The position numbers were made by a program, and so were the translations under genes. Shown here one piece after another: positions 29,612 through 57,620 of a DNA stretch of 64,000 nt; within the stretch, counting starts at the first letter, position 1, and each line of letters begins with the position of its first letter. Where the stretch lies: contig OZ024742.1 of NCBI GenBank assembly GCA_964016885.1, positions 360,406,001 through 360,470,000 on the forward strand, read 5' to 3'. The DNA comes from Eledone cirrhosa. Taxonomy: Eukaryota. The notes beneath the pieces were generated by a model that saw only the letters and a program-made list of their open reading frames with translations, was not told where the DNA came from and did no database searches.

Positions 29612-30726
29612 ATGAAAGACGTAAAATAAGAAAATTATTAAAATTGACTTACTAAAATTTTCACTCCAACTAATTAGTCTCTGTAAGGGAATAAATATGG
29701 TTACGCAACGCAACCATAGAGAAATCCTTACGTCATCAGGGAGTCTATTCTCAGCTAAGTTCCCAGGCAATGCGTGGACACAAGGAACTCATATAAAAAT
29801 AACTCAGTGGATGGAAAAAAGCGAGCGGGGACTAAATTACAGGACACTAAAAAAATTCACTGCCTACTTGGTCAGTGGCAAATTCTAAAGAATCAATCAC
29901 GTGACACTGAGGTTAATCAGTGAGGAGTGGAGTGGTAATAAGACAAGAGCCTAAAGACTACCATGAACCATAGCAGTAATTTCGGCAAGTTTTGCTCAAC
30001 AAATAATTTAGAGATAAATATAAAGAATTAGTATATCTACCAACATATGTATACAGATGCATACCTATGCTAGCAAATATATATGTTATGTCTTAGTAAC
30101 TTTGTGGTTCTATGCAAGGGGATGCAGAACAATTATATGAAAGACGTAAAATAAGAAAATTATTAAAATTTGTTGGTAGATATACTAATTCTTTATATTT
30201 ATCTCCAAATTATTTGTTGAGCAAAACTTGCCGAAATTACTGCTATGGTTCATGGTAGTAGTTAGGCTCTTGTCTTATTACCACTCCACTCCTCACTAAT
30301 TAACCTCAGTGTCACGTGATTGATTCTTTAGAATTTGCCACTGACCAAGTAGGCAGTGAATTTTTTCAGTGTCCTGGAATTTAGTCCCCGCTCGCTTTTT
30401 TCCATCCACTGAATTATTTTTATATGAGTTCCTTGTGTCCACGCATTACCTGGGAACTTAGCTGAGAATAGAGTCCCTGATGACGTAAGGTATTCTCTAT
30501 GGTTGCGTTGCGTAACCATATTTATTCCCTTACAGAAACTAATTAGTTGGAGTGAAAATTTTAGTAAGTAAGCCAATTTTAATAATTTTCTTATTTTACG
30601 TCTTTCATATAATTGTTCTGCATCCCCTTGCATAGAACCACAAAGTTAAAGTTACTAAGACATAGCATATATATTTGCTAGCATAGGTATACATCTGTAT
30701 ACATATGTTGGTAGATATACTAATTT
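29612..30726. mobile_element. Retrozyme-like element family R1: 525-bp monomer, tandem then inverted
   Basis: atgaaagacgtaaaataag at 29612 and 30137; inversion at ~30170; HHRs at 29663-29744(-) and 30473-30553(+). Confidence 0.8.
30473..30553 (+). ncRNA. Type I hammerhead ribozyme with extended helix II (family R1)
   Basis: UCC-CUGAUGA-C-GUAAGG..UAUGGUUGCG-UUG-CGUAACCAUA..CCUUAC-A-GAAA-CUAAUUAG-UU-GGA. Confidence 0.8.
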
Positions 30727-30796
30727 ATATATATATATATATATATATATATATATATATATATATATATATATATATATATATATATATATATAT

Positions 30797-31400
30797 TAAA
30801 AATTAGAATTGGTGCTCTGAAATAGCCATATATATATGAATGTATATATAGTGTATTTTGCAATACACTTTATGCTTAATTAAAAGCATTTTGAAGACCG
30901 TATGCTATTGTTTTAGAGTAGTGACAGACTCACTTACTTTAATTTCAGCAAACAGAGGGAGATGAGTCTGCCACTACTCTAAAACAGGGGGAGATGAGTC
31001 TGCCACTACTCATACGGTCTTCAAAATGCTTTTAATTAAGCATAAAGTGTATTGCAAAATACACTCTATATACATTCATATATATATGGCTATTTCAGAG
31101 CACCAATTCTAATTTTTTATTTCTGCTTGACCGGCAACCGCTCTGTATAATCAGTCCCTGATTATTTACTAGAATTCTATAAGAACATAAGATCCGTAAT
31201 TTCAGCAGATGGGAGGAGTAGTTGGCTTTGATAAGCATCAATAAATGCAGAAACAAGGCCTTGTCAGCTTTATCTCCCCCTGTTTGCTGAAATTAAAGTA
31301 AGTGAGTCTGTTACTACTCTGAAACAATAGCATACGGTCTTCAAAATGCTTTTAATTAAGCATAAAGTGTATTGCAAAATACACTATATATACATTCATA
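30797..31400. mobile_element. Retrozyme-like element with a 320-bp monomer and an inverted upstream arm
   Basis: catacggtcttc at 31011 and 31331; 30797-30904 is the inverse of 31011-31118; flanked by (TA)n. Confidence 0.75.
31224..31269 (+). ncRNA. Type I hammerhead ribozyme, U3-A8 core variant
   Basis: GGCU-UUGAUAA-GCAU-CAAUAA-AUGC-A-GAAA-CAAGGCCUUG-UC-AGCU; palindromic helix III ACAAGGCCUUGU. Confidence 0.7.
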
Positions 31401-31749
31401 TATATATATATATATATAATATATATATATATATATATATATATATATATATATGGTGAGAAAAACCACAAACCCTCCATCTCAACTCTACTTTTGAAAA
31501 GCAGAAGAACTGCGAAACCGGTAAAGGAACCAAATAAATATATATATATATTTTTTTAAATAAGACTCCAGTTGCATTTTCGATTTCATCTGTTTTTCTT
31601 TATACTTTCACTCGTGTAGGACACCTCGGTTATTTTTCATTTTGTAAAAAAAACCTCACTTTCTAATATATATATATATATATATATATATATATATATA
31701 TATATATATATATATATATATATATACATATATATATATATATATTGTC

Positions 31750-53800: not shown

Positions 53801-54244
53801 TGACACGCATCCAGATACAGGTATTAAATACACATACGTGTATGAAAGCACGCGTATAAACACACACACACGCGCGGTCACTTATATGCGGAAGATAAAG
53901 AGGGAAGGGAGTGTAATAGTAAAAAGAAGTGTCATTCTCGATATATGTATAAAAATGAAACAATATATGAGAATGAAAATTTTTTTTTAAATCAAAGAGA
54001 AAGTAATCAATTAACACTAGAGAAAAGAAAACAAACATAGGTACGCACGTAGATACACATATATATATAAAAAATATTTATACACACAAATACGTACAGA
54101 CAAAAGCGCATGCATGTGTACATACATACACACGAGGAACGTATATATATATCGCCACATGTATATCTAATCACACGTACGTACGCGACTATATATATAT
54201 ATATATATATATATATATATATATATATATATATATATATATAT

Positions 54245-55262
54245 CTATCTATCTATCTAAGGCGGGTAAAATTCCCGAGATCCATGGACGAGTTCTCTCC
54301 AGCGGTCTCTGTCCCTCATTATCGCTGCCATGTCCTGCGTCTCCAACAGACCAGTGTCTGTCCTTAGGGCATCAACATATGTTAACCTTGGTCTTCCTCT
54401 TCCAGTGTGTCCATGTAGGGGCTCCCAAAGGAGCACTGAGTGCAATGTCAACTCTGGATGTCGGTGAGCATGTCCAGCCAACCTCAGTCTCCTCTGTGTC
54501 ACTTTTGAGCTGACTTTTGGGAGGCTCCCATACAGCTCTGAGTTTTTCATCCTCAGTGTATACTGATTAATGTTCAGAGCCATCCTCAGCATTCTCGTGT
54601 AGCACCCATCCACCATCTGAGTGAGTCTCTTGGTCAGTGTCCAAGTCTCAGACCCACACAGCAGCACAGACTCCACTACAGCAATGAAGAGGCGGATTTT
54701 CAGGTCTCTACGAAGGTCCGACTTCCACACCGATCTCAAGCTGTGGCACGCCGCCCAGGCCTTGCTCTTCCTCTCAACCACATCATCTTCCGTATTCCCA
54801 ATCTTTGCTCCCAAATACAGGAAGTCCTCAACCAATTCCAGCGGCTTCCCGCCTACATTAGTGATCCCCTCTGGCTTCTCAACATTCTCTACCAGATATT
54901 TTGTTTTAGTCTCATTCATTCTCAGCCCCACACTCATCGACACAGTCTCAACCTCCCGCATCAAATCCTCTGCCTCCTTCACTGTATTTGTCACCAAAAC
55001 TATGTCGTCGGCAAATTCAGCATCCGATACCTTTTTCGCCCCAACTCTCCTGCTCTGAGCCGGTGCTACAGTAAAGCCAGAGTCCTGGTGTTTCTCCAGT
55101 GCAAGGCGCATACAATAGTCCACTACGATGATAAAAAGGTAGGGAGCCAATGTATCTCCCTGGAGCACTCCAGCCAGTATCTCAAAGAACTCTGTCATCC
55201 CATCAGGTGTAATGACTTGGGCTTTGGTGTTGGTGTAGAGCAGTGATATCAGGTCCACTATC
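54245..55262 (-). mobile_element. 5'-truncated RTE-type LINE (RT domain to C-terminus)
   Basis: GVLQGDTLAPYLF, EFADDIVL, GLRMNETKT, FLYLG, SETW, RLRLAGH; (TAGA)n tail. Confidence 0.9.
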
Positions 55263-56027
55263 CTATACATACATATACACATACACACCCATACATACAT
55301 ATACATATACACACATATACATACACATACACATACATTCACCCGCATACACGCACACGTATAAATAAGTATGTAAAAAACATAGATATAAAAACACACA
55401 TACACACATATATATACGTACGCACGCACACATACGGAGGCGTTCGTATACATATACAGAACGTATACGCACATAAGCACACTCACACACATAGATACAG
55501 ATTATAAACCAGCCATAGGAATAAATGAGTACAGATATAAAATCGGCTGCGAAACAACAGAATATATCTGAGGTGGAAAACGCAAGTGACATGTAGTATC
55601 AGTCAAGTTTGCAATTTTCAACAGTTGAAAATTGCAAACTTGACTGTCACCACACATTATAAACCTGAAGATTGCGAAAGCATGAAAGTACTTGTTCAAT
55701 TAACACTTAACATTTAATATTCTATCATACTATTTCATTATAATACCATTATAAATTTTAAAGGATTGTAAATAAAACGAGTAAATCAGACAAATTTGGA
55801 ATTCCTCTTATTAATATAATCTCCTATACACAATCATACACACCCGTGTATATTTCTCTCTCTCTCTCTCTCTCTCTCTCTCTCTCTCTCTCTCTCTCTA
55901 TATATATATATATATATATATATATATATATATATATATATATATATATATATATATTTATATATATATATATATATATATATATATATATATATATATA
56001 TATATATATATATATATATATATATAT

Positions 56028-57620
56028 AAAAGACGTAAAATAAGAAAATTAAAAAAAAAATTTTTTTTTAAATTAACTTACTTAAATTTTCACTCCAACT
56101 AATTAGTTTCTGCAATGGGATAAAGACAGTTACGTAATGAACTGTTGAGAATTTCATTGCGTCATCAGGGAGGTCATTCTCAGCCGAGTCTCCAGGCGAT
56201 GCGCGGACACTGGGGACTCATATAAAAATAATAATAATTCGGTAAATGGAACAGCTATCGAGGACTGGATTCCAGCTACTGAAAATGCTCACTGCCACTG
56301 ATCATATGGCCGATTCTAAAGAATCAATCACGTGACACAGAGGCTAGTCAGTAGGAATGGGATGGTAAGATGACAGGCGCCTACTAACACCCCTCCAAAA
56401 AATTTAGAAGTGGTTTTGGCAGGTTTGCTCGACAAATCAGTGATTTGGAGATAGATATAGATAATTTAATATATCTACTAACATAAGCGCACAGATGTAC
56501 GCTAATACCAGCAAATACACAGGTTATGTCATAGTACCTAGGTGGTTCAATGCAGGAGAATGCAGAACAATAATATAAAAGACGTAAAATAAGAAAATTT
56601 TTTTAAAAAAATTTTTTTAAAAATTAACTTACTTACTTAAATTTTCACTCCAACTAATTAGTTTCTGCAATGGGATAAAGACAGTTACGTAATGAACTGT
56701 TGAGAATTTCATAGCTGTTCCATTTACCGAATTATTATTATTTTTATATGAGTCCCCAGTGTCCGCGCATCGCCTGGAGACTCGGCTGAGAATGACCTCC
56801 CTGATGACGCAATGAAATTCTCAGCAGTTCATTACGTAACTGTCTTTATCCCATTGCAGAAACTAATTAGTTGGAGTGAAAATTTAAGTAAGTAAGTTAA
56901 TTTTTTTATAATTTTTAAAAAAATATTTTCTTATTTTACGTCTTTTATATTATTGTTCTGCATTCTCCTGCATTGAACCACCTAGGTACTATGACATAAC
57001 CTGTGTATTTGCTGGTATTAGCGTACATCTGTGCGCTTATGTTAGTAGATATATTAAATTATCTATATTTATCTCCAAATCACTGATTTGTCGAGCAAAC
57101 CTGCCAAAACCACTTCTAAAAATTTTTTGGGGGTGTTAGTAGGCGCCTGTCATCTTACCATCCCATTCCTACTGACTAGCCTCTGTGTCACGTGATTGAT
57201 TCTTTAGAATCGGCCATATGATCAGTGGCAGTGAGCATTTTCAGTAGCTGGAATCCAGTCCTCGATAGCTGTTCCATTTACCGAATTATTATTATTTTTA
57301 TATGAGTCCCCAGTGTCCGCGCATCGCCTGGAGACTCAGCTGAGAATGACCTCCCTGATGACGCAATGAAATTCTCAACAGTTCATTACGTAACTGTCTT
57401 TATCCCATTGCAGAAACTAATTAGTTGGAGTGAAAATTTAAGTAAGTAAGTTAATTTTAAAAAAAATTTTTTTAAAAATATTTTCTTATTTTACGTCTTT
57501 TATATTATTGTTCTGCATTCTCCTGCATTGAACCACCTAGGTACTATGACATAACCTGTGTATTTGCTGGTATTAGCGTACATCTGTGCGCTTATGTTAG
57601 TAGATATATTAAATTATCTA
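56028..57620. mobile_element. Retrozyme-like family R1 subfamily, ~550-bp monomers, tandem and inverted
   Basis: HHRs at 56092-56173(-), 56797-56876(+) and 57351-57430(+); inversion at ~56712. Confidence 0.85.

Follow-up and report, generated by a model that had tools for sequence, protein, structure and literature searches.

The window analysed here is a 64,000-nucleotide (nt) stretch of the Eledone cirrhosa genome (assembly GCA_964016885.1, contig OZ024742.1, positions 360,406,001 to 360,470,000 of the forward strand). It contains four insertions of a dispersed, non-coding repeat family, R1, whose units carry a predicted hammerhead ribozyme, and a Penelope-like element that is not R1 (Table 1). 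A preliminary description made from the letters alone had placed loci at 29612, 34883, 47956 and 56028 in one family, which sequence comparison bears out. The periods it gave, about 525, 520 and 550 bp, were measured as 525 (A), 518 (B; 522 from cut to cut) and 549 and 554 (C). All four loci had also been called head-to-tail, but two full hammerheads on the same strand occur only in 34885-35622 and in the plus arm of 56029-57618. Loci A, C and D are head-to-head inverted insertions, B is a lone arm, and D is without a full unit. The unit is non-coding, as had been stated, the longest open reading frame (ORF) starting with methionine in doubled window units being 63 amino acids (aa).

Eight hammerhead motifs were found in the window. 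CTGATGA and CTAATTAGTT are present in every one, matching the invariance reported for them, and the helix II variants GUAAGG/CCUUAC, GAAAG/CUUUC and GCAAUG/CAUUGC were recovered as quoted, together with both inner hairpins. The same-strand motifs placed at 56797 and 57351 have predicted cuts after 56872 and 57426, 554 nt apart. In the first of these (56796..56878) helix II bears an inner loop and hairpin of 37 nt; an additional A precedes GAAA, after which come the 10-nt palindrome ACUAAUUAGU and the triplet GUU. Three of the eight motifs carry changes that probably damage them: at core 29739 GAGA stands in place of GAAA, at 48093 G10.1 and C11.1 do not pair, and at 35004 helix I contains a mismatch.

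Table 1. Features of R1 and of a neighbouring Penelope-like element in the window. Positions count from the first letter of the window; X1 and X2 are the two 3' end sites described in the text.
Feature	Position	Strand	Remarks
Locus A left arm	29614..30170	-	1.06 units, period 525; 3' end X1 against (TA)n
Locus A left-arm hammerhead	core 29739	-	GAGA replaces GAAA
Locus A right arm	30168..30725	+	head-to-head with left arm; 1.06 units; 3' end X2 against (TA)n
Type I hammerhead, subfamily A	30472..30554	+	helix II GUAAGG/CCUUAC; predicted cut after 30548
Hydra-type Penelope-like element (candidate partner, not R1)	32768..34638	+	5'-truncated
Locus B	34885..35622	-	single 5'-truncated arm, 1.4 units; 3' end X1 against (TA)n
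Locus B hammerheads	cores 35526, 35004	-	two on same strand; predicted cuts after 35460 and 34938
Locus D left arm	47958..48268	-	0.58 unit; hammerhead core 48093, first helix II pair broken; 3' end X1
Locus D right arm	48266..48440	+	about 0.3 unit; 3' end X2, then (TC)22(TA)19
Locus C left arm	56029..56715	-	1.25 units; 3' end X1
Locus C left-arm hammerheads	core 56168	-	full, predicted cut after 56097; plus 3' half of another
Locus C right arm	56711..57618	+	1.65 units, two hammerheads; 3' end X2 against (TA)n
Locus C hammerhead 1	56796..56878	+	4-bp helix I, CUGAUGA, extra C, 6-bp helix II
Predicted cut-to-cut monomer	56873..57426	+	554 nt; would be released by cleavage
Conserved TCACGTGA palindrome	57188..57195	unstranded
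Locus C hammerhead 2	57350..57432	+
'Tail', X1 (about 57500) to X2 (about 57618)	57500..57618	+	contains long conserved hairpin

The source assembly comprises 3.0 Gb, of which about 1.9 Mb was read. Genome-wide, an exact pattern for the intact R1 core gave 7,426 matches (reversed control, 0), an exact 26-mer close to the 3' end gave 6,972, and a variant of this 26-mer gave 676. A random 600 kb beyond the window held just two R1 loci, the window being richer in R1 than average, and sampling was therefore based on patterns. Unmasked BLAST of the window against itself was dominated by (TA)n. Eighty-one distinct units measured from cut to cut are 511-594 nt long and form eight subfamilies (clusters) at 72-91% identity. 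Tandem arms reach 2.8 units in the samples described below, and one locus (L288; locus labels are ours) has four consecutive hammerheads. Contigs of two sequencing runs, labelled X1 and X4, contain the R1 head-to-tail joint and sequence variants. CTGANGA is kept in 71/81 full units, GAAACTAATTAG in 80/81 and the palindrome TCACGTGA in 78/81. This palindrome, which we take to be E-box-like, is a possible internal promoter element of R1. Two Penelope-like elements unrelated to each other (L217:3330-3240; L238:1899-1935) also have TCACGTGA, near ACCAATC, in their terminal regions, and it is possibly a promoter module that they share with R1.

The main signal, overlooked in the preliminary description, is the insertion footprint of R1. 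Two samples, together 121 loci, were drawn without regard to length. The first 100 matches of a 3'-end pattern yielded 62 loci with 103 arms (sample 1); an additional, older insertion present at L212 was excluded, as was a locally duplicated copy at L245, and the duplicates L185 and L186 were both counted. The first 100 matches of a variant pattern yielded 59 loci with 94 arms (sample 2), one duplicate locus and nine secondary arms having been left out by eye. Arms end at one of two sites in 96/103 and 86/94 cases, respectively (182/197 in total). Site X1 lies about +55 past the predicted cut (+73 in subfamily C) and X2 about 115 nt beyond X1. Repeats of TA, or of TC then TA, adjoin 91/96 and 79/84 of the X1 or X2 ends (together 170/180), and both sites themselves lie on short TATA stretches matching (TA)n. 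The 5' ends are variable: arms have a median of 0.67 unit in sample 1 and 0.81 in sample 2, with maxima of 2.5 and 2.8, and in 22/62 loci of sample 1 an arm crosses at least two cut sites. There were 76 inverted insertions. Both ends could be classed in 65, every one of which combines X1 with X2 (35/35 and 30/30); in the other 11 one end was unclassed. Independent ends would give this pairing in 50% of cases (P = 3e-11 for sample 1). A set of 83 R1 loci picked by similarity has the same end pattern. Tracts of (TC)n with at least four units adjoin 17/50 X2 ends as against 0/46 X1 ends, and one occupies 48441-48485 of the window; they possibly reflect slippage as reverse transcription starts.

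This footprint is the 'tail' layout of Penelope-like retrotransposons. The layout, including a tail on one end, has been described (bioRxiv 2021.04.23.441226), and two internal start sites that give the tail were shown in vitro for the lizard element Poseidon (PMC11167929). Since R1 bears the footprint of Penelope-like retrotransposons, it probably parasitises them, and we conclude that R1 is a retrozyme that has no long terminal repeats (non-LTR retrozyme), that is, a non-autonomous Penelope-like element. Short tandem arrays would also be found in a satellite or in another repeat that recombination spreads at the DNA level. Against such a repeat, to which we give almost no credence, stand the dispersal of the copies, their fixed 3' ends and ragged 5' ends, the X1 plus X2 rule and the strand-biased folding with compensatory changes described below; the end statistics already contradict it.

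R1 might instead be merely the terminal repeat (pLTR) of an unseen autonomous Penelope-like element, and with only about 1.9 Mb of 3.0 Gb read a parent could have been missed. At L105, L217 and L238 an R1 5' end does lie downstream of a same-strand Penelope-like coding end. However, the upstream elements at these loci belong to different clusters, their number is by estimate about that expected by chance at such density, and 19 other copies of the L105 element bear a different terminal repeat of their own. The three were rejected as partners, being chance or chimeric neighbours. R1 also has its own tandem period (511-594 nt in the 81 distinct full units). No recurrent junction of R1 to one reverse transcriptase/GIY-YIG ORF was seen in 142 + 20 loci, nor among the matches listed in 20 more. 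The preliminary description had named, as the case that would overturn it, a mere terminal repeat with no tandem arrays elsewhere; arms of up to 2.8 units and a four-hammerhead tandem were found, and no coding parent among the loci read. A terminal repeat is a very improbable identity for R1.

Across the family the R1 hammerhead is of type I, with a helix I of 4-5 bp, CUGAUGA, one extra base and a 6-bp helix II beginning G-C. Helix II bears a long inner loop with a hairpin and is followed by a second extra base (A), then by GAAA, the palindrome ACUAAUUAGU and GUU. The motif was matched in full by 149/219 anchored segments, and among these 149 the extra base is C in 116 and A in 27. The cut triplet is GUU in 453/465 counts. 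For covariation analysis 18/22 diverse motifs were aligned, four being left out as truncated or insertion-bearing. In this alignment 95% of cells pair, and both sides have changed at 5/18 pairs. Its pairing or covariation score was matched by 0/500 shuffles, which is not a probability because the sequences are related, and slid controls pair at no more than 47%. Penelope-type hammerheads have been described as having a long helix II together with one additional 5' base (PMC4209133), and such a helix is also found in other Penelope-like families of the E. cirrhosa genome.

Fold energies were calculated with a nearest-neighbour model, outside which tertiary contacts lie. A single motif favours a shut fold, in which CUGAU pairs with AUUAG, over the active one by 2.5 kcal/mol, and the double hammerhead is more stable than two shut monomers by 7 kcal/mol. 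The predicted behaviour is that of a ribozyme held shut when it occurs singly and cutting slowly in dimers. A search of Rfam at 56700-57520 gave no hammerhead family, even at E<=10; over the whole window the matches listed (150 of 256) were microsatellite-driven microRNA noise. Since Rfam misses the R1 hammerhead, such families are probably undercounted. Other small hammerhead-like motifs, belonging to differing repeat families, have cores at 9437, 43607, 44021, 44476, 14040, 59850 and 60797 of the window.

Structure is conserved well beyond the ribozyme. The 554-nt monomer (56873-57426) folds with a z of -5.8, and 0/100 shuffles are equally stable. In circular folds (12 shuffles each) z ranges from -5.1 to -9.5 for the hammerhead sense and from -1.2 to -4.5 for the antisense, the hammerhead-sense strand folding better in 5/5 representatives tested. 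Both sides have changed at 23/144 consensus pairs among eight subfamily representatives. When high-probability pairs predicted for one subfamily were followed into the remaining seven, double changes had preserved the pairing in 37, 35 and 53 instances; the expectation from base-matched shuffling is 16, 7 and 13 (0/500 shuffles reach the observed counts), and single changes disrupt pairs at less than half the expected frequency. Because pairing is kept through double changes, selection for structure is supported for the entire R1 RNA and not for the ribozyme alone. The selection on RNA structure proposed in the preliminary description is thus backed by covariation and reaches across the whole unit.

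R1 is likely copied in trans by an autonomous Penelope-like reverse transcriptase (RT)/endonuclease, probably of the (TA)n-targeting Hydra type. The candidate in the window (32768-34638) has a GIY-YIG-like C-terminus at 32911-33405, its own hammerhead from 34529, a short inverted arm at the left, one X1 end and one X2 end. It bears the Hydra marks DKT and CxCx5C; these motifs and the insertion of Hydra elements into (TA)n have been described (bioRxiv 2021.04.23.441226). Its family gave 64,773 first-look candidates. The family is young: at L249 (G000:C1:437197000-437206999) tandems of 3,531 bp are 99.96% identical and hold a 784-aa open frame. Family ends fall at two sites in 101/116 cases and pairs follow the rule in 25/26 (overlapping loci not removed). 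In the hammerhead of the L249 family the core is a YUGAGAA variant, and helices II and III are both long, helix III being palindromic. Given the Hydra marks, the (TA)n targets and the same end rule, a Hydra-type partner is therefore likely. A Neptune-type partner was dropped for Hydra upon a motif check. A second Hydra-type family (L251-L269) has a UUGAGAA-core hammerhead, a tail of about 165 nt and an X1 context, ATTTCTTACTTTCCCACG, loosely like that of R1. At L105:1274-2150 an R1 arm is joined via a short inverted piece directly after the ORF of this second family, with no (TA)n at the joint, a single case that is a possible template switch between R1 and Hydra-type RNAs.

Several observations weigh against this account. 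Penelope-like families are many in the genome (34 clusters in 1.88 Mb), and neither among these clusters nor in the Hydra-type tandem was an autonomous element with R1-like ends found, so that the partner is inferred from the footprint alone. Target-site duplications are unreadable inside (TA)n. GUU is a weak hammerhead cut triplet. A literature search for natural GUU hammerheads gave unrelated work only. Eight of nine predicted frog retrozyme dimers were uncleaved in vitro (bioRxiv 10.64898/2026.07.22.740005).

In the mechanism we propose, transcription of R1 would run on beyond a single unit, perhaps starting at the TCACGTGA element. Nicks made by the partner enzyme in the two strands of a (TA)n tract would be followed by reverse transcription that starts within the RNA at X1 and X2 and runs through intact hammerhead junctions. 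Uncut multimers would serve as templates alongside monomers that were cut or religated.

What was copied bears on whether the ribozyme acts in vivo. In a full retrozyme cycle tandem transcripts self-cleave as dimers and the resulting monomers are closed by ligation into circles, which then serve as the main template and are copied for more than one round. At least one predicted cut is crossed by 81/96 and 67/84 arms and at least two by 23 and 21, and template junctions were therefore intact or religated. Cleaved templates are hinted at by a roughly 2-3-fold excess of 5' ends at +1 to +20 past the cut, which number 16 in sample 1 against 5.7 expected (11 clean by eye, P = 0.03) and 15 in sample 2 against 4.7 (preset bin, 11 loci, P = 1e-4). 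However, this peak lies at +2 to +18 and rarely at +1, and pausing at helix I could explain it. A further hint is at L359:2077-2630 (G000:C1, about 299.08 Mb), where a 457-nt unit that lacks the ribozyme is joined exactly at +1 in 3/3 copies. This is one locus, and its exact junction pattern has one genome match. Genome patterns for +1 junctions, which missed subfamilies with a shorter T-run, gave 6/26 joined at -1/+1 by eye against about three expected by gap-length weighting, which is not significant. Six other hammerhead deletions are each confined to one copy of their insertion, and a rare GUA variant recurs in all three L366 copies and both L207 copies; we count both among the points for circles.

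A linear route alone would use uncut read-through of genomic partial tandems as template, with template jumps renewing the tandems and the hammerhead fold kept as a protein-binding or folding signal from a Penelope-like parent. Mixed tandems favour it over circles: at L110 and L122 tandem hammerheads within one arm differ at the cut site, and at L109 adjacent units are 96.8% alike as against 97.7-98.3% to another locus. After the first unit the truncation rate per unit climbs from 0.9-1.1 to 2.1-2.8, a rise that templates of finite length would produce, and some R1 arrays look like copies of uncut multimers. The conserved U17 and the stable shut fold point the same way. For the lizard element in vitro, hammerhead cleavage was unnecessary and unprocessed RNA was the main substrate (PMC11167929). 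Against a purely linear route stand the catalytic core kept across eight subfamilies, the repeated L359 junction exactly on the predicted cut and the gathering of 5' ends just past the cut in both samples. Divergence is 3.5% within an arm, 4.3% across arms and 6.0% on average (2.1% to the nearest) between loci, values that do not separate circles from multimers. Circles as the main template and linear copying alone carry equal weight in our assessment, each falling somewhat short of an even chance, and a mixture fits best. A family with an internal promoter must, by inference, regain tandem length each cycle, by circles or by template jumps.

A bolder possibility, which we regard as rather unlikely, is that R1 lives as a parasite in the form of circular RNA and that its genomic copies were left by rolling-circle reverse transcription, the enzyme being a Penelope one of the Hydra type. 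Nicked strands would prime at two fixed sites of a circle, the hammerhead would be shut in the monomer and cut in the dimer, and L359 would be the fossil of a mis-ligated circle, its 5' end marking the in vivo cut. If true, R1 would offer direct genomic evidence for the retrozyme cycle and for the origin of Penelope-type tandems and tails.

The window is dense in Penelope-like elements, and further fragments with Cx2-5CxxC-type linkers lie at 41033-42457, 3641-4671 and 57651-58200. Minisatellites of 33, 34, 81 and about 55 bp occupy 18266-20457, 20933-22372, 23701-24554 and 62574-64000. One strand of the 33-bp array is free of stops for about 770 codons and the opposite strand for about 750.

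These results bear on two questions, the mobilisation of animal retrozymes and the role of Penelope-like hammerheads. R1 supplies a link to Penelope at the level of the footprint: its copies number in the thousands, its two start sites are exact, and a strict rule of one site per strand holds. Together with a candidate partner that is young and has an open frame of 784 aa, this allows a two-component in vitro test to be readily set up, and R1 is a test system for whether hammerhead RNAs spread as circles.

The class, unit length and long helix II of R1 are already known. Like R1, the animal non-LTR retrozymes (PMC7229834; bioRxiv 10.64898/2026.07.22.740005) occur in thousands of copies alongside Penelope-like elements, as AT-rich tandem units that are non-coding, contain a single type I hammerhead and are predicted to fold with a high degree of pairing; the term retrozyme-like holds at class level. 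Their families span 51-972 bp (bioRxiv 10.64898/2026.07.22.740005), a range that includes R1, so that its length, described earlier as exceeding that of animal retrozymes, is no novelty. Unlike the canonical retrozyme hammerhead, that of R1 is of the Penelope type (helix I of 4-5 bp, an extra base before helix II, a long helix II). R1 copies are mostly truncated and often have inverted arms (median 0.67-0.81 unit), whereas retrozymes form long arrays, and R1 is known from genomic copies alone. Plant LTR retrozymes differ further, with a type III hammerhead in LTRs, a primer site and a polypurine tract; the open ends of the R1 hammerhead lie in helix I, which defines type I, and its head-to-tail unit is without LTR layout.

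Penelope partners for retrozymes were proposed in 2020 (PMC7229834, PMC7761336), when metazoan retrozymes showed no motif pointing to a partner according to a review (PMC7761336). A 2026 preprint favours Penelope-like partners or origin through phylogeny and co-occurrence (bioRxiv 10.64898/2026.07.22.740005). In PMC7229834 and the 2026 preprint the Penelope link is drawn from co-occurrence, shared motif type and phylogeny, and for R1 from the insertion footprint. No retrozyme with a mapped two-site Penelope tail was found in the literature outside supplements, subscription journals and Repbase, and a word search of an Octopus vulgaris repeat annotation (PMC13282606) gave no mention of ribozymes.

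Parallels to the footprint are elements of the Hydra clade and non-autonomous Chlamys elements such as MRC1 (bioRxiv 2021.04.23.441226), which share with R1 5' truncation, partial tandems, an inverted 5'-truncated copy, a tail on one end, (TA)n targets and a hammerhead upstream of the 3' ends. Non-autonomous head-to-tail Penelope-like forms are known in green algae (same source). R1 differs from the Hydra and Chlamys elements in having no ORF, no likeness found to an autonomous family and a tail of about 115 nt as against 30-40 bp; tails of other Penelope-like families in E. cirrhosa are about 75 and 165 nt. Poseidon of Anolis resembles R1 in its two internal start sites downstream of the hammerhead and its AT-rich targets, both strands of which are nicked and extended. 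Unlike R1, it is autonomous, and its start sites lie inside the ORF, close together, and are not homologous to the target (PMC11167929).

The minimal Penelope-like hammerheads (PMC4209133) share with R1 a short helix I, a larger helix II, an unpaired base between 9 and 10.1, the G10.1-C11.1 pair and a palindromic helix III suited to dimers. Compared with these, the R1 hammerhead alone has a second extra base (A) before G12 and an inner loop of 32-37 nt with a hairpin on helix II, and it is further distinguished by its 10-nt palindrome, a conserved U at position 17 and the lack of an Rfam hammerhead match.

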